NCBI GenBank assembly: GCA_031257995.1
Contig: JAIRNN010000028.1
Span: 1-32,910, forward strand
Direction: 5' to 3'
DNA length: 32,910 nt
DNA from: Spirochaetaceae bacterium
GTDB lineage: Bacteria > Spirochaetota > Spirochaetia > Treponematales > Breznakiellaceae
The translations under genes and the position numbers were made by a program. This document shows positions 15,459-30,345 of this stretch, one piece after another; position 1 is the first letter of the stretch; each line of letters begins with the position of its first letter. A model generated the notes under the pieces. That model was not told the origin of the DNA, made no database searches, and saw only the letters and a program-made list of their open reading frames with translations.

Positions 15459-15638
15459 CCCCTTATGTGGGGTCTGGGGGACGAGTCCCCCAGCGGGGGG
15501 TCTATGACACCTTCGGGGGCAAGGCCCCGTAGAGGGGGTAGCATAAGACCCTAAGCCGTGCTTGCAGAGCAAGCATTTGCGGGCGGCGGTCTGGAGCGAG
15601 GGGTCGGCAAAATTTGCTGCGGCTTCCCCCCTTATGTG
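15459..15638 (+). repeat. Family R-related element, copy c, inserted between rpsM and rpsK, bounded by an 11-bp direct repeat
   Basis: Its 3' half, GCTTGCAGAGCAAGCAT...CTGGAGCGAGGGGTCGGCAA...GCGGCTTCCCCC, matches copy b. CCCCTTATGTG occurs at 15459-15469 and again at 15628-15638. Confidence 0.75.
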
Positions 15639-18453: not shown

Positions 18454-19113
18454 ATGACCGATTGGCCTAAAATATTCGCCGCGCTCAACAAGTGGCGGGA
18501 GGATTTGTCTCTCTCCGAGCCGTCGGTTACGCTGGTGGCGGAGCGTTACGCCCGTGATCCGTGGGCGGTTCTCGTATCCACATTGATAAGCCTTCGTACC
18601 AAAGACGAGGTAACGATCAAGGCATCCGCCGTGTTGCTTGCCCGGTGTAAGGGTCCGTCCGATGTGCTGGGCGCGTCCCAGCCGGAAATCGAAAAACTCA
18701 TCTATCCGGCGGGATTCTACAAAACCAAAGCCCTGCGTCTCCGCGAAATCGCCGCGATCCTCGTGGAAAAATACGGCGGCGCCGTCCCCGACTCCCTCGA
18801 AGAACTCCTTGCCCTCCCCGGCGTGGGCCGCAAAACCGCGAACCTCGTCCTCATCGAAGCCTTCGACAAAGACGGTATCTGTGTCGATACCCATGTCCAC
18901 CGCATCAACAACCGCGCGGGCTGGCTCGTCTCCCGCACCCCCGATGCCACCGAACTTATCCTCCGTGACATCCTTCCCCGCGAATACTGGAAGCCCATCA
19001 ACGCCCTCCTCGTCCTCTACGGACAGCGCGTCTGCAAACCCATAAGCCCCATCTGTTCAAAATGTGTGATCAGAGGCCACTGCGCGCGAAAAGGCGTAGA
19101 CAAAAGCCGGTAA
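18454..19113 (+). CDS. nth: Endonuclease III (HhH-GPD DNA glycosylase with a 4Fe-4S cluster)
   Basis: HhH motif LLALPGVGRKTANLVL, catalytic-region VDTHVHRI.NR, C-terminal C-x6-C-x2-C-x5-C (CKPISPICSKCVIRGHC). Confidence 0.9.
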   Translation: MTDWPKIFAALNKWREDLSLSEPSVTLVAERYARDPWAVLVSTLISLRTKDEVTIKASAVLLARCKGPSDVLGASQPEIEKLIYPAGFYKTKALRLREIAAILVEKYGGAVPDSLEELLALPGVGRKTANLVLIEAFDKDGICVDTHVHRINNRAGWLVSRTPDATELILRDILPREYWKPINALLVLYGQRVCKPISPICSKCVIRGHCARKGVDKSR

Positions 19114-19120
19114 CTATTTA

Positions 19121-19237
19121 CACGGGAAACCTTGATCGCGAGGAACCGCAAACGGCGCCATAAAGGGTTGCGCGGATTTTTCAGTCCTTGTCTCTCTTAA
19201 TCCGTGCCGTCTGTGGTTTTGTGTTTCCGTCTGTCGG
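19121..19237. repeat. Family D motif cluster C
   Basis: CACGGGAAAC, CCGCAAACGG, CGCGGATTTT, then inverted TTAATCCGTG, CGTCTGTGG, CCGTCTGTCGG. Confidence 0.6.
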
Positions 19238-21761: not shown

Positions 21762-21889
21762 GGGGGAAGTCTCCCCCTCGCTCCAGACACGCACTCTGGC
21801 CGAAAGGCCTGAGCCTAAAGGCTCGTCCGCACCTTCCTCCGTTTGGCCTTCCGCTACCCCTCTGCGGGGGACACCCCCGCAACGCCCCC
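21762..21889 (-). repeat. Family R element, copy d (most complete, reverse orientation)
   Basis: Reverse complement: GGGGGCGTTGCGGGGGTGTCCCCCGCAGAGGGGTAGCGGAAGG...CTGGAGCGAGGGGGAGACTTCCCCC. Confidence 0.8.
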
Positions 21890-21951
21890 GATACAGTGTT
21901 TGCGCCGACTTCTATGTGTGGAGTTTTGCCAAAAAATTGTAAAAAAAATAC

Positions 21952-22902: not shown

Positions 22903-22958
22903 TAAATTGTGAGATATAAACATAATGGAATAAAACGAAGCGCGGGCAGACTTCGCGT

Positions 22959-23108
22959 CCACAGATTAACCACAGCACCGAATCACCTTTAACCGCAGAT
23001 GAACGCGGATGAACACAGAAGAAGAGGAGCCACGGATTTTCACGGATTAAGAGAGGCGCAGGGTGAAAAATCCGTGTACATCCGTGTCATCTGCGGTTTC
23101 CCGTGATG
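22959..23108. repeat. Family D motif cluster B (between convergent gene ends)
   Basis: CCACAGATTAA, CCGCAGATGAA, CGCGGATGAA, CACAGAAGAA, CCACGGATTTT, CACGGATTAA, then inverted AAATCCGTG, ACATCCGTG, TCATCTGCGG. CACGGATTTTCAC 23031-23043 pairs with GTGAAAAATCCGTG 23063-23076. Confidence 0.7.
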
Positions 23109-23115
23109 AAGCCCG

Positions 23116-23430
23116 TTAATCCATGTGGAACATCTCTACAAGGCCGTCGCTCACAGGCGATTCGTCCGGGTTGGTGTCCATCACGTCTTTCATCATGTGC
23201 CACCACTTCCGCACGATCTCTTTGCCGGGAAGCCCGCCGTCCGTGGCATCGTCCGCCCGGCGCTGAAACGCGAAAAGCGTGTTGGTCTTCCGGTCCAGAT
23301 AGATCGAATAGTCGGAAATCCCCGCCTTGCGGAGTTCCGCCTTGAGGTCTGGCCATATCTCGTCGTGGCGCTTCTTATACTCCGCTTCACAGCCGGCCTT
23401 GAGCCGCATCGCAAACGCATGTCTTGTCAT
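23116..23430 (-). CDS. rhaM: L-rhamnose mutarotase (104 aa)
   Basis: AAGGAG precedes the ATG at 23430. MTRHAFAMRLK...EYKKRHDEIWPDLKAELRKAGISDYSIYLD...LFA......WW..M.DVM..NPD.SPVS. Close to my recollection of E. coli RhaM in sequence and length. Confidence 0.88.
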   Translation of the reverse strand: MTRHAFAMRLKAGCEAEYKKRHDEIWPDLKAELRKAGISDYSIYLDRKTNTLFAFQRRADDATDGGLPGKEIVRKWWHMMKDVMDTNPDESPVSDGLVEMFHMD

Positions 23431-23473: not shown

Positions 23474-23733
23474 TCAGCATATCTTCCGGCATTCTATCCC
23501 CAGAAGCCGCGCCAGCTTTTCTATTTTTCCGGCGATATGTCCGGTGCCGATGGCGCAGTGATGGGCCGGCCCGGCTTTTGACCATTGGTTGACAAAATCG
23601 CGGGCGGGCAAGGCAAAACGATAACGGCTGTTCGTATTGCCGATTTTCAGAACCGGGCCGGGAACCGATTCGCCTTCGGCGCAGAGCAGGAACGTTGACC
23701 CGCCGGGCCCCCGCACGACCCACTTACCCTCAC
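23474..23733 (-). pseudogene. 3' remnant (~85 codons) of a sugar isomerase gene, L-fucose/L-arabinose-isomerase-like C-terminal domain
   Basis: ...STFLLCAEGESVPGPVLKIGNTNSRYRF..PARDFVNQWSKAGPAHHCAIGTGHIAGKIEKLARLLGIE resembles the C-terminal end of that family, from memory. The ORF's N-terminal 40 codons are just a translation of the H1 hairpin. Confidence 0.4.
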
Positions 23734-23734
23734 G

Positions 23735-23892
23735 ACCCGCGCAGCGATAACGTGTCTGGTAGTGTGTTCTTGGGGACGTGAAACACCCCCTGCGGGCGGC
23801 ATTGCGCCGCGTAGCAAGCACAGCCGCCCGCAGGGGGTGTTTCACGTCCCCCCGCGAGACGGCCTAACTAACTACCCAACACTTAATGAGCC
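23735..23892. repeat. H element copy 1: ~158-nt unit with a perfect 29-bp-stem hairpin, directly downstream of the binding-protein gene
   Basis: Arms 23772-23800 GGGGACGTGAAACACCCCCTGCGGGCGGC and 23823-23851 are exact reverse complements, with a 22-nt loop. Flanks CGACCCGCGCAGCGATAACGTGTCTG and CTTAATGAGCC are shared with copy 2. Confidence 0.85.
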
Positions 23893-24911
23893 TAATACAC
23901 GCTCTTCCACTCGTTAATGTTGGACGGTTCAAACTTGAAGGGCGGACCCAAGACGACCTCGGTGCCGCCGTCGGCTGCGTTGACAACGGTGTAGCTGCCG
24001 AGCTTGCCGCCGCCGAACTTGTCGCCGATTTTACCGGTGATCGCGCCGTCCGCGAGAGCCTTCGCCGCATAAGAGGCAAGGTAGCCCAGATCAATCGGGT
24101 TCCACAAGAACATATACGGACACGAACCGTTGGTGATGTAGTCCGCCATTTCCGAGGGAAGGCCGAGACCGGTGATTTTGACCTTGCCGATGAGCCCCCG
24201 GTCGGTTATGACTTTGGCCGCCGCCGCGATACCGACCGTAGTCGGCGCGACAATCACCTTGAGGTTCGGATAACTCGCGAGAAGCCCCTCGGTCTCCGAT
24301 ACGGACTTGTCGCGGAGATCGTCGCCGTAGGCAATCTTCACCAGTTTCAAATTGGCGTACTTCGCCTGCTTCAGAGTTTCCTCCATCACCGCAATCCAAG
24401 CGTTCTGGTTGGATGCCTGACTGGTCGCCGAAAGAATCGCGATCTCGCCGGAACCGCCCGCCTGATCAAAAGCCGCTTCCACCAGCGTTTCCCCAATCAG
24501 CTTGGTGTCCGCCTGATTGATATGCAGGGAACGGCTGGCCGCATTCACCGCCGAGTCGGCAGTAACGATGTTGATGCCCGCGTTCTTCGCCTTTGTGAGT
24601 ACCGGCTGAAGCGCGTCGAAATCGTTTGCCGAAATGGTGATTGAGGCGACCTTCTGCGCGATAAGCTGATCAATTATCTGGATCTGAGCTTCCGCAGTCG
24701 GAAGGTCGGGAGCCCGACGGATCACCGTTCCACCCTGCTCTTTGACACCGGTTTCAAAACCGTCCATCAGTTTTTCCCCAAAGGGATTCCCGGTGCTCTT
24801 GAATACAACAGCATGCACATTGCCCCCGCCCGCCTGCTGTCCGCCGCCCGCAAACAATGCCGCGCTCAAAGCGGCCGTCAGCGTCAACGCAATCACTAAA
24901 ACTCTTTTCAT
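23892..24911 (-). CDS. Sugar ABC transporter periplasmic substrate-binding protein (RbsB/RhaS-type fold), probably for rhamnose
   Basis: GGAGG precedes the ATG at 24911. Signal peptide MKRVLVIALTLTAALSAALFA. PBP type I features. Context: sugar ABC genes and rhaM. The ORF-track start at 25013 lies in repeat sequence. Confidence 0.85.
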   Translation of the reverse strand: MKRVLVIALTLTAALSAALFAGGGQQAGGGNVHAVVFKSTGNPFGEKLMDGFETGVKEQGGTVIRRAPDLPTAEAQIQIIDQLIAQKVASITISANDFDALQPVLTKAKNAGINIVTADSAVNAASRSLHINQADTKLIGETLVEAAFDQAGGSGEIAILSATSQASNQNAWIAVMEETLKQAKYANLKLVKIAYGDDLRDKSVSETEGLLASYPNLKVIVAPTTVGIAAAAKVITDRGLIGKVKITGLGLPSEMADYITNGSCPYMFLWNPIDLGYLASYAAKALADGAITGKIGDKFGGGKLGSYTVVNAADGGTEVVLGPPFKFEPSNINEWKSVY

Positions 24912-24972
24912 ACCAAAATCCTCCATAAAAATATATTTACCGCCCAATGCGGCATTTCTCCCCATCCCATGA

Positions 24973-25095
24973 GGGGGGAAGTCTCCCCCCTGCCTCCAGC
25001 CAGCGCAAACCATCGAAGGCTACGCCGGCGATAGTTTGCGCCGTCTTCCGGCACCCCCCTCTACGGGGCGCTGCCCCGTAACGCCCCGCCCCCGC
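24973..25095 (-). repeat. Family R element, copy e
   Basis: GGGGGGAAGTCTCCCCCC...CCCCGTAACGCCCCGCCCCC. Reverse complement gives GGGGCGTTACGGGGCAGCGCCCCGTAGAGGGGGG...CTGGAGGCAGGGGGGAGACTTCCCCCC. Confidence 0.75.
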
Positions 25096-25250
25096 GACCC
25101 GCCCAGCGATAACGTATCTGTATCCTTGGGGACGGGAATACACCCCCTTCGGGCGACATTGCGCCGCAAAGCAAGCACCAGCCGCCCGAAGGGGGTGTAT
25201 TCCCGTCCCTCCGCACTAATCCCTCTTACTGACTGACCCTTAATGAGCCC
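25093..25250. repeat. H element copy 2, same orientation as copy 1
   Basis: Arms 25128-25157 and 25181-25209 (GGGGACGGGAATACACCCCCTTCGGGCGAC / GCCGCCCGAAGGGGGTGTATTCCCGTCCC), with one mismatch. Flanks CGACCCGCCCAGCGATAACGTATCTG and CTTAATGAGCC. Confidence 0.85.
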
Positions 25251-25671
25251 CGCGCACTAAGCGGAGTGTGTCCGCACACTTAGCAGAGTGTGCCCGCGCA
25301 CTTAGCAGAGTGTGTCCGCGCACTTAGCAGAGTGTGTCCGCACACTTAGCAGAGTGTGCCCGTGCACTTAGCAGAGTGTGCCCGCGCACTAAGCGGAGTG
25401 TGCCCGCGCACTAAGCGGAGTGTGCCCGCACACTTAGCAGAGTGTGTCCGCGCACTAAGCGGAGTGTGCCTGCGCACTTAGCAGAGTGTGTCCGCACACT
25501 TAGCAGAGTGTGTCCGCGCACTTAGCAGAGTGTGTCCGCGCACTTAGCAGAGTGTGCCCGCGCACTTAGCAGAGTGTGCCCGCGCACTTAGCAGAGTGTG
25601 CCCGCGCACTCGGCAGAGTGTGCCGGCGCACTTAGCAGAGTGTGTCCGCACACTCGGCAGAGTGTGCCCGC
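25250..25671. repeat. Tandem array: 19 head-to-tail copies of a 22-bp unit, consensus CCGCGCACTTAGCAGAGTGTGY, plus a partial CCGC
   Basis: Counted unit by unit: unit 1 at 25250-25271, unit 19 at 25646-25667. Each unit holds the inverted repeat GCRCACT-N6-AGTGTGC. There are no spacers. Confidence 0.95.
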
Positions 25672-25762
25672 TGAAACTGCTTCCGCGAATGTTTCCTTCG
25701 CAAGCGCAACCATCTCCCATTATCCATTTTCCATTTTCAATTCGCGTAGTGTGGCTGTCCCT

Positions 25763-26119
25763 CCCCCGTAGGGGGAGCCGCCGCTCTTTCCCATCACGCC
25801 GCCCCCAAGGAAGGCCCCTGTGGGGCGCCCCGCGAGTGGGGGTTGGCTCTCCCCAGAATGGGGGGCCGCCGCTCTTTCCCTTCAAACCGCGCCCAAGGGA
25901 AGCCCCTGCGGGGCCTCTCGCACCGGACGGTGCAGACCTCCTGCGCCGGACGGTGCGAACCTCTTGCGCCGGGCGGTGCAGACCCCCTGCACCGGGCGAT
26001 CCGAACCTTTCGCACCGGGCGATCCTTCCCCCGTAGGGGGAACCGCCGCTATCTCCCCTCACGCCGCCCCCAAGGGAAGCCCCTGTGGGGCCCGCCTCCA
26101 AGGAAAGCCCCTTCGGGGC
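25763..26119. repeat. Repeat mosaic: three ~64-nt modules (25763-25826, 25851-25914, 26028-26091), a 23-bp tandem x4.6 (25920-26025), and a partial module (26097-26119)
   Basis: Module: CCCCC-GTA-GGGGG + RRCCGCCGCTMTYTCCC.TCA..CCGC.CCCAAGGRAAG + GCCCC-TGY-GGGGC. 23-mer units: GCACCGGACGGTGCAGACCTCCT / GCGCCGGACGGTGCGAACCTCTT / GCGCCGGGCGGTGCAGACCCCCT / GCACCGGGCGATCCGAACCTTTC. Confidence 0.85.
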
Positions 26120-26123
26120 GGGC

Positions 26124-26198
26124 GGGGGCGTTGCGGGGGTGTCCCCCGCAGAGGGGGTAGGACGCAACGAAGTGCGGCCGGAGGGGGAGGCTTCCCCC
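26124..26198 (+). repeat. Family R element, copy f (short form)
   Basis: GGGGGCGTTGCGGGGGTGTCCCCCGCAGAGGGGGTAGGACGCAACGAAGTGCGGCCGGAGGGGGAGGCTTCCCCC. Confidence 0.8.
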
Positions 26199-26269
26199 TT
26201 TTTGCTTGCTACCCGCATTTTTCCTTCCTTGACGCGCTCTCCCGTAAGGGGGCGCCGCCCGTTGCCCCA

Positions 26270-27271
26270 TTATCCATGCCTCCTCAAGGGTCTGCGGGGC
26301 AGGTTCATTATCAGTACGGACAAGACCAGCAGCAACCCCAGGATGATGAGTATGAGCTGGGCGGACACGTTGATGAGGCCGAGGCCGTAGTTGAGGAAGC
26401 CGATGATGAAGATGGCGAGGAGGGGGCCGGCGATTCTGCCTGTGCCGCCTGAGGTGCTGACCCCGCCGAGGACGACCATCGCGATAACATCGAGTTCGTA
26501 GTTCATCGCGACGTTGGGGCGCGTGCTGCCCATGCGCGAGGTGAGGAAGATCGAGCAGACCGCCGACATGAAGCCGACCAAAAGGCCCACGATGAGGAGG
26601 ACGCGGTCGGTACGGATGCCGGAATAGCGGCAGGCGAGCAGGTTGCTGCCCATGCCGTAGACGGCGCGGCCAAACGAGGTGCGGTGCAAGAGGAGGCCGA
26701 AGATGATGGCGGCGGCGGCGAATACGATGAATATGAACGGTACCGGGCCGACATAGCCCCACGCGAGGAACGAAAACCATGCGGGAAAGCCGCCTGACGC
26801 GCGGTTTTCGAGGATGACGTAGGCCGCGCCGCGATAGATGGTCATCGTCGAGAGCGTAACGATCATCGCGGGGAGTTCGCGGAACTTGATGAGGAGGAGG
26901 CTGTTCACGCCGCCCAGAGCCGTGCCAATGACGAGGGCGAAGACGAGCGCCGCCTGCATCGGGATGCCCGCGTTGTAGATGACGGCCATGAGTACCGAGG
27001 TGAGCGCGACGATGGAGCCGACGGAGATGTCGATGTTGCCCAGAATGATGACGAGCATCATCGGGAGGACGATGAAGGCTTTGTCAAGGAAGTTCATCGG
27101 CGCGGAAAGAAAGGTGTTGGCCGAGAGATACCACGGGGAGAGGAGCGAGTTCATCACGTTGACGAGCAGGAATATGATGACGAGAAGCCACTCCCACTGG
27201 AAGAAGAAGCGTTTCCAGCTCCACGGTTTTTCGAGGGTGAGGATTCTTTTTGACAAAGCGCTTTCGCTCAT
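26270..27271 (-). CDS. Sugar ABC transporter permease (RbsC/RhaQ-like)
   Basis: 333 aa, about 9-10 hydrophobic segments, typical BPD_transp_2 pattern ...GNIDISVGS...GG.S..GG.G. ATGA overlap with the upstream permease stop. Confidence 0.9.
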   Translation of the reverse strand: MSESALSKRILTLEKPWSWKRFFFQWEWLLVIIFLLVNVMNSLLSPWYLSANTFLSAPMNFLDKAFIVLPMMLVIILGNIDISVGSIVALTSVLMAVIYNAGIPMQAALVFALVIGTALGGVNSLLLIKFRELPAMIVTLSTMTIYRGAAYVILENRASGGFPAWFSFLAWGYVGPVPFIFIVFAAAAIIFGLLLHRTSFGRAVYGMGSNLLACRYSGIRTDRVLLIVGLLVGFMSAVCSIFLTSRMGSTRPNVAMNYELDVIAMVVLGGVSTSGGTGRIAGPLLAIFIIGFLNYGLGLINVSAQLILIILGLLLVLSVLIMNLPRRPLRRHG

Positions 27272-29858: not shown

Positions 29859-29888
29859 TCATTATCACCCCGCTTTTTCGCGCCGTAA

Positions 29889-29921
29889 ATGGATAAAACA
29901 CTTGCAAGCATGGACAAAACA
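29889..29921. promoter_or_regulatory. Candidate operator: direct repeat ATGGAYAAAACA x2, 21 bp apart, flanking the palindrome CTTGCAAG, 31-63 nt upstream of the ABC operon start
   Basis: ATGGATAAAACA 29889-29900, CTTGCAAG 29901-29908, ATGGACAAAACA 29910-29921. Confidence 0.35.
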
Positions 29922-29994
29922 GTGAAATTGAGGCGATGGACGAAGCGCATTGACTTATATGTTAGGGTGGGGAAGGGGGAGATGCGGCCCGCAA

Positions 29995-30345
29995 AGGCAC
30001 CGATTTTCATCACAGGGAATCGCAGGTGAGCACAGATTAAAATCAGCGTAATCTGTGAACAATGAAGCCCTTTCGCATTTTCCGTGATAAAAGAATAAAA
30101 CCACAGAAGGCGCGGATTAACGTGGAATAGGGCCTACAGATTCGAATAAAAGTCCGCAGATTAACGCGGATTGTCACGGATTAAAAGGAGCCAGGTATGA
30201 AAATCCGCATTGCCATATATTCGTCTCATCCGTGTCCGGGGTTATACGAAAAAAAAACGGCATTGCCGAAAGCCAAAGCGCCGCGATAGAAGTCCCGCGA
30301 GACCGGATTTGTGTCCGGCCTCTGTAACGTGTCCGGATTTTGGAA
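29995..30345. repeat. Family D motif cluster D (largest)
   Basis: CACCGATTTT, TCACAGGGAAT, CACAGATTAA, TAATCTGTGA, TTTTCCGTGAT, CCACAGAAGG, CGCGGATTAA, CTACAGATTC, CCGCAGATTAA, CGCGGATTG, TCACGGATTAA, AAATCCGCAT, TCATCCGTGT, and further CCGGATTT copies to about 30345. Confidence 0.7.
30249..30268 (-). terminator. Weak candidate intrinsic terminator downstream of the large ORF
   Basis: The minus strand reads CGGCAATGCCG followed by T9 (A-run 30249-30257 on +). The stem is only 4-5 bp. Confidence 0.3.

Follow-up and report, generated by a model that had tools for sequence, protein, structure and literature searches.

What role, if any, do two long hairpins play when they bracket a single gene of a transporter operon? 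The question is raised by the 32,910-nt (32.9-kb) spirochete stretch analysed here, which we call the window. In it, the substrate-binding-protein gene of a rhamnose-type ATP-binding cassette (ABC) operon lies between two copies of a hairpin repeat that we term H, with H1 the left copy and H2 the right. Both copies are in mRNA sense relative to the operon. H appears to be a previously undescribed hairpin repeat, new to the record, with two members so far. The sequence is best read as that of an intergenic module, discrete and specific to the lineage, that measures about 165 nt and has an inverted repeat of 29-30 bp as its core. In the explanation that we favour, at about even confidence, H would be a lineage-specific repeat resembling the REP and Correia elements that lies within a normal operon, is co-transcribed with it, and acts as an exonuclease barrier or an RNase III site.

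The two copies of H

Self-BLAST of the window aligns 23727-23892 with 25089-25249 (E=1.5e-29), and the copies are in the same orientation, as the original prediction had stated. Two short motifs of the element, one in the left flank and one in the loop (CATTGCGCCGCNNAGCAAGCAC), each have exactly two matches in the window, compared with 0.07 and 0.00 expected by chance, respectively. The copies are identical at 77% of alignment columns (82.5% with gaps excluded). Because identity reaches 87% across the arms and loop, against 65-73% across the flanks, the hairpin, and not the flanks, is the conserved core of H.

The ends of the unit were refined by comparing the neighbouring sequence. Read in mRNA sense, the right end of H is GCTCATTAAG, with zero spacer to the stop codon TAG (H1) or to a 22-nt array (H2). 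H1 begins at the first base past the binding-protein stop codon, and its stem starts 41 nt after that stop. H2 sits between a repeat of a second family, R, and the 22-nt tandem array; its left end, at approximately 25089, was set by comparing other R-family copies. On either side the two copies are bordered by unrelated sequence, so that the unit ends are discrete. The flanks of H2 show no complementarity, those of H1 pair in part, and no terminal inverted repeats were found at the ends of either copy. A TA/TA target duplication is possible at H1, depending on the placement of the end, with nothing comparable at H2. Stop codons in all three frames of the right flank were considered as a conserved feature and rejected, since on inspection H2 alone has every frame closed.

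The direct orientation of the copies, 1,357-1,362 nt apart, is what a substrate for homologous recombination would look like, and it had been suggested that the pair might serve to excise or amplify the binding-protein gene. Efficient RecA recombination needs roughly 20-30 bp of identity. The longest identical run shared by H1 and H2 is 12 nt, well below this need, at 77-82% overall identity, and an independent contig described below has the same arrangement without a deletion junction. Recombination between the copies is therefore very unlikely.

Stem pairing, folding and strand

The stem comprises 30 paired alignment columns. In H1 it has 29 bp, all of them perfect, and in H2 it has 30 pairs, of which 28 are Watson-Crick, one is G-T and one is A-C. 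From H1 to H2 the stem differs at five positions. The original prediction held that every such difference is mirrored in the opposite arm; this is correct for three, and the other two are unmirrored transitions. The mirrored changes are T-A to G-C and G-C to T-A, both double transversions, and one added T-A pair (a 1-bp insertion). Three of four changed stem columns coincide with their partners in a way that restores pairing, with a chance of about 5e-5 by a combinatorial estimate that assumes independent change. One unmirrored transition replaces G by A close to the stem top, with A-C as the result in the + strand and G-U in the - strand. The other, C to T in the terminal pair at the base of the stem, favours the + strand.

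Both copies fold far more stably than shuffled sequence (z-scores of -7.5 to -9.0). On the - strand, the RNA of H1 forms 37 bp at -78 kcal/mol and that of H2 forms 36 bp at -74 kcal/mol; the + strand forms 34 pairs, at -74.4 (H1) and -66.1 (H2) kcal/mol. What appears to be the loop contains, in the - strand RNA, an additional 7-bp apical helix (GUGCUUGC-NNN-GCGGCGC) that requires two G-U pairs. The opposite strand cannot form these pairs, and the apical helix is thus confined to the mRNA-sense strand. All loop differences between the copies fall in the triloop or internal loop of the - strand fold, which are unpaired. This strand asymmetry is suggestive rather than decisive. Both copies have 29 continuous pairs in the - strand RNA, above the approximately 20 bp of continuous double-stranded RNA that is the criterion for an RNase III substrate. 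There is no T-run after the stem on either strand, for which reason H was rejected as an intrinsic terminator, and H is not among the terminator-like sites of the window scan.

A fold of this stability might suggest that the H copies are independent small-RNA genes, or that they belong to a known class of structured RNA. The Rfam search gave no match at gathering thresholds and only sub-threshold noise from miRNA-precursor hairpins, and no tRNA or tmRNA was found. No promoter-like site or terminator belongs to H, and H is absent from close relatives, so we regard an identity of this kind as remote.

A serious rival is that H is a palindrome maintained at the DNA level, selfish or neutral and with no RNA role. 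It would be a relic of a non-autonomous mobile element or filler from break repair, placed in a local insertion hot spot, with stems kept not through selection but by intrastrand template switching or hairpin-templated repair. The mirrored changes suit this proposal well, since double transversions and a mirrored 1-bp indel are easily made by template switching in one step and slowly made stepwise (PMC8794818). H is also a discrete unit among unrelated neighbours, H2 lies in a pile of other repeats, H1 abuts a foreign gene fragment at what reads as a rearrangement scar, and no homologue of H was found in the searched databases. The proposal fits less well with the mRNA sense of both copies, with an apical helix that depends on G-U pairs and forms on the mRNA-sense strand only, and with the position of H1 exactly where relatives have a hairpin after the stop codon (see below). 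It also has to do without terminal inverted repeats, a consistent target duplication, or a transposase gene in the window. On balance, we consider a purely DNA-level palindrome possible but somewhat improbable.

Synteny of the operon

The window is chromosomal: it carries the ribosomal protein cluster from S12 to L17, with SecY and RpoA, followed by a histidine kinase and an AraC-type response regulator. Its - strand genes encode an ABC ATPase, two permeases, and a Peripla_BP_4 binding protein. Homologues of the latter are annotated as rhamnose ABC transporter substrate-binding proteins, the top matches being 84-91% identical, and the named records come from Treponema and Spirochaetaceae metagenome-assembled genomes (MAGs) and from the termite-gut species Treponema primitia. 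The true start of the binding-protein gene is at 24911 and its stop codon is at 23892-23894, with an intact C-terminus (…NINEWKSVY*). In agreement with the original prediction, the gene is placed after the permease genes, and the segment between the H copies holds only one R-family repeat and this gene, to which we add a native leader of 45 nt.

For synteny we used nine related loci with flanking sequence (L003-L008, L028, L030 and L031). In all nine, the permease gene or genes are followed directly by the binding-protein gene or by its short native leader, and the spacers are 37-110 nt. The full order of ATPase, permease, permease and binding protein is visible in L003-L005 and, in part, in L028 and L031. 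The L030 locus starts only 60 nt upstream of the binding-protein gene, where the same short native leader is present. Neither H nor the neighbouring repeats were found in these loci, whether by BLAST or with a covariance model built from both copies. Because the nine relatives share the order in the absence of H, having the binding-protein gene last is, on this comparison, the native order in the lineage. The rhaSTPQ order, cited in the original prediction for described rhamnose ABC loci with this gene first, is inapplicable to this lineage.

These relatives bear directly on the idea, also offered in the original prediction, that H1 and H2 mark the two ends of a binding-protein cassette that is mobile or has been recombined. 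Direct repeats around a single gene and a rearrangement scar at the left end of H1 are what such an event might leave behind. The order, leader and C-terminus, however, are native and common to nine relatives without H, and it was relatives of just this kind that had been named in advance as evidence against a role in rearrangement. H lacks both core sites of the attC type and extrahelical bases, and the window was found to hold no gene for a transposase, an integrase or a reverse transcriptase. We therefore place a cassette origin among the least probable explanations, and note as a caution that a gene flanked by hairpin repeats in direct orientation need not be a mobile cassette. A retron was likewise rejected, as the window has no reverse transcriptase gene.

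The last ~45 nt upstream of the binding-protein start codon are homologous to the relatives' spacers. Within this leader are a small hairpin that resembles a terminator and has a T-run (24938-24954), a stretch rich in AT, and the ribosome-binding site GGAGG. Between the permease stop and the leader, where the relatives have 37-110 nt, the window has about 1.3 kb of lineage-specific repeats, including H2. Since the leader and the C-terminus are homologous to those of relatives, the additional ~1.3 kb is an insertion between the permease stop codon and the leader. At the other end of the gene, all of the relatives carry a short GC hairpin directly after the binding-protein stop codon; these hairpins are unrelated to each other and to H. 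Judged by position, H1 occupies the functional slot of this post-stop hairpin.

Comparable small hairpins precede the binding-protein gene in relatives L003-L008 and L030; conceivably, the gene is driven from a promoter of its own or is controlled by attenuation.

The left junction of H1

On its left side, H1 is separated by a gap of only 3-4 nt (TTA) from a fragment of an arabinose/fucose-isomerase-like gene, which is 85% identical at the amino acid level to residues 402-481 of the homologue at L003:4932-6380 (tblastn). The rhaM gene lies 44 nt beyond the fragment; in L004, L008 and L030, rhaM directly follows the binding-protein gene. In relatives that have it, the full isomerase-like gene is immediately upstream of the ATPase gene. 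The promoter region of the window is of the other operon type (as in L004 and L005), which lacks the isomerase-like gene, and the fragment is thus foreign to this operon. From these alignments, we conclude that the left boundary of H1 is a rearrangement scar and that the binding-protein gene itself is unmoved.

The open reading frame (ORF) at the junction of H1 and the fragment has no second record in the databases. Database entries for a "93-aa L-arabinose isomerase" were considered as a possible conserved small gene and rejected: the two that were checked in context are artefacts, one of a contig end (L029 103-384) and the other of a frameshifted gene (L028 6856-8282), and both trace back to the full-length gene that precedes the ATPase gene. 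There are many short "L-arabinose isomerase" entries, 80-137 aa in length (proteins P0122-P0240), and the remaining ones are probably artefacts also.

Searches for further copies

The original prediction proposed BLAST and covariance-model searches for additional copies, and in the collections searched these gave none beyond H1 and H2. The loop motif has no match in GTDB genomes (the source genome is not among them), none in viral contigs, and one chance coding match in JGI metagenomes. The left-flank motif has one chance match in an acidobacterial MAG and 18 viral matches, all of which were rejected by the covariance model. BLAST of H1 against plasmids and phages gave no match. The covariance model (R1, built from H1 and H2), when run on the window and 30 loci, matched only H1, H2 and the end of one independent contig. 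Translated in six frames, H has nothing at E<=10 among 5.8 billion proteins, and among 1.84 billion representatives it has only three weak, multi-stretch matches to proteins of 1,105-1,425 aa. Our search of the literature on repeats in termite Treponema found nothing.

The independent contig is a short-read Logan contig (SRR14710907, L001) that contains the R repeat, the leader, the binding-protein gene and the first 59 nt of H1. Its positions 1105-1166 correspond to 23833-23894 of the window with one single-nucleotide polymorphism (SNP), G versus T at 23861 in the right flank of H1. The contig ends within the H1 arm on one side and within the R repeat on the other, which suggests that the assembly graph branches at repeated sequence. 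The SNP and the break would fit either strain variation or additional H-like copies in the sample. This contig also speaks to the concern that in so extremely repeat-rich a region the whole arrangement is an assembly artefact. It shows the same succession of R repeat, leader, gene and start of H1 independently, and the H copies, being about 20% different, would not collapse together; an artefact is accordingly the least credible of the explanations considered here.

Proposed role of H

Three readings of the pair were originally offered, and of these the RNA stability element is the best supported; we consider it plausible. After the split from the sequenced relatives, H copies entered a normal operon with the order ATPase, permease, permease, binding protein and rhaM. 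H2 came within the 1.3-kb repeat pile between the last permease gene and the native leader, and H1 has taken the place of the short hairpin that relatives carry after the stop codon. If transcribed with the operon, the copies would fold into RNA hairpins of 36-37 bp without a U-tract. H1 could then hold back exonucleases that approach the end of the binding-protein cistron in the 3'-to-5' direction, and its duplex of at least 29 bp would be a possible substrate for RNase III. In either case, the binding-protein mRNA may be decoupled from that of its neighbours, an effect that REP has on malE and Correia elements have in Neisseria.

Two precedents make an effect of H on mRNA likely. In ABC operons, structures that flank the binding-protein cistron stabilise it selectively, irrespective of where in the operon it lies (PMC5927463), and RNase III binds or cleaves the Correia hairpins that mRNAs carry (PMC2649163). 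The abundance of other intergenic repeat families in the genome is also in favour of this reading. Four observations count against it. Template switching can keep stems perfect without selection (PMC8794818). One of the two unmirrored transitions favours the + strand, which makes the strand evidence modest. The terminator-like hairpin and T-run of the leader lie between H2 and the binding-protein start, so that H2 may be off the binding-protein mRNA and in the 3' part of the upstream transcript. Finally, only two copies are known; the "family" consists of these two members and a Logan contig that breaks inside H1, which is weak and indirect evidence of more.

A bolder version of the RNA reading would make H a novel type of hairpin element, first seen here, of spirochetes from the termite gut. 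Such an element would insert exactly at stop codons or replace post-gene hairpins, carry or trap pieces of flanking genes, of which the foreign isomerase fragment at H1 would be an example, and act in pairs as an RNase III-bounded "mRNA cassette" from which the binding-protein message is excised. We consider this version improbable.

Should the reading of H as an RNA element hold, a repeat of selfish appearance would have taken over the job of a native post-cistron hairpin. H would then adjust how much binding protein is made relative to the membrane components, with the binding-protein gene last in the operon, and the principle known from REP/malE and from Correia elements with RNase III would extend to uncultured spirochetes of the termite gut. 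The mirrored transversions and indel make H a small system in which selection and template switching can be weighed against each other as causes of stem upkeep. With two copies known, its wider significance is limited for now.

Relation to known elements

H resembles the REP/BIME elements of E. coli (malE-malF) in being an intergenic palindrome 3' of an ABC binding-protein cistron, in mRNA sense and without a U-tract, that would block 3' exonucleases (for the principle, see PMC5927463). The two differ in that REPs are imperfect palindromes of ~35-40 nt, usually arranged as inverted pairs and present in hundreds of copies, whereas the H unit measures 165 nt, of which the hairpin takes up 80 nt, with 29-30 perfect bp in the stem; two copies are known, and there is no sequence similarity to REPs. 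REP families are marked by tens to hundreds of dispersed copies and by a RAYT transposase elsewhere in the genome; the 32.9-kb contig holds two copies of H and no Y1 transposase. The GTAG head of REPs is not conserved in H, as a GTAG occurs near H1 only and not near H2. With respect to the functional class of 3' mRNA-stabilising hairpins, H1 has the expected placement, being an mRNA-sense hairpin 3' of a cistron and outside the footprint of the terminating ribosome.

The Correia elements of Neisseria (Correia/NEMIS, or CREE) are of similar size (~105-157 bp) and are co-transcribed as long hairpins, whose binding or cleavage by RNase III alters adjacent genes (PMC2649163); for H, such behaviour would be by analogy. 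In CREE the hairpin is formed by the terminal inverted repeats and a TA target is duplicated, whereas the hairpin of H is internal and its flanks are non-complementary. H was consequently rejected as a Correia-like miniature inverted-repeat transposable element, as it lacks terminal inverted repeats and a consistent target-site duplication. The palindrome-associated elements derived from IS200/IS605 (PATE) were rejected because H has a single central hairpin and not separate subterminal hairpins; a TTAC-like string beside H1 has no counterpart at H2.

The RNase III hairpins of phage T7 and of rRNA offer another parallel, in that duplexes of at least 20 bp lie between cistrons, and a bracketing pair would free the cistron as a separate mRNA with structured ends. 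In the T7 sites, internal loops direct single-strand cuts; the stems of H are perfect. Integron attC sites are alike in that direct, hairpin-forming copies bracket a single gene. They differ in having paired R'' (RYYYAAC) and R' (GTTRRRY) cores and extrahelical bases, while the stems of H are without bulges and the window has no integrase; the only RYYYAAC-like strings are those of the H1 right flank, with none in H2. An attC cassette gene is, moreover, an insertion relative to related genomes, in contrast to the gene between the H copies, which is native and syntenic in nine relatives. Hairpins produced by template switching share with H the long perfect stems, mirrored substitutions and mirrored indel (PMC8794818). 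Template switching is a mutational mechanism and not a class of element, and it leaves the conserved loop, the flanks and the two-copy distribution unexplained.

Coordinates and neighbouring repeats

Table 1. Positions of H, the surrounding genes and the adjacent repeats in the window.
Feature	Position	Strand	Basis or remark
H1 hairpin repeat unit, 165 nt	23727..23891	- (mRNA sense)	Alignment with H2; covariance model 206.7 bits
H1 hairpin core, 29-bp perfect stem	23772..23851	-	
H2 hairpin repeat unit, 160 nt	25089..25248	- (orientation as H1)	Alignment with H1; covariance model 197.2 bits
H2 hairpin core, 27 perfect bp plus G-U pairs	25128..25210	-	
rhaM (L-rhamnose mutarotase)	23116..23430	-	
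Arabinose/fucose-isomerase-like fragment, last ~80 codons of a 482-aa gene	23477..23722	-	tblastn
Rhamnose-type ABC substrate-binding protein gene, 339 aa, Peripla_BP_4, intact	23892..24911	-	
Native leader (ancestral permease-to-binding-protein spacer)	24912..24957	-	Homology to L006 and other relatives
R-family repeat ("copy e")	24958..25088 (approximate)		Comparison of R copies; its end sets the left boundary of H2
22-nt tandem array, ~19 units (CCCGCGCACTTAGCAGAGTGTG, 89% matches)	25249..25671, decaying to ~25737		Abuts right end of H2; absent from relatives
Remaining repeat pile	25672..26269		Decaying 22-nt units, 79-88-nt family, 23/46-nt tandem, R-family copy; absent from relatives
Second permease gene	26270..27271	-	

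Several repeat families other than H are found in the window. The R family is dispersed in many intergenic regions and in both orientations, with copies that end in ...CCCCTCTRCGGGG-N4-CCCCGYAACGCCCCCG (108-188, 1970-2011, 15515-15553, 21845-21890, 24985-25088 and 26123-26197), one of them directly after the S7 gene. The 79-88-nt family has three copies and, together with the 23/46-nt tandem repeat, covers 25753-26096 and 25914-26021. A further family, with the motifs ATCAC..GGAACCGCAGATGA and CACGGATTAA / AATCCGTG, occurs at 180-260, 19105-19215, 22955-23115 and 29980-30215. Two copies of this family enclose the rhamnose operon as a whole, lying downstream of rhaM and upstream of the ATPase promoter, respectively, and a third copy lies upstream of the histidine kinase gene.

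The ATPase promoter region (29870-29960, - strand) shares TCCATC.CCTCAA...TGTCCATTTAC with L004 (4020-4090) and L005 (6322-6390). Relatives of the L004/L005 type carry a divergent AraC regulator gene at this promoter; that gene is missing from the window, where its place is taken by repeats and an 844-aa ORF without a Pfam match.

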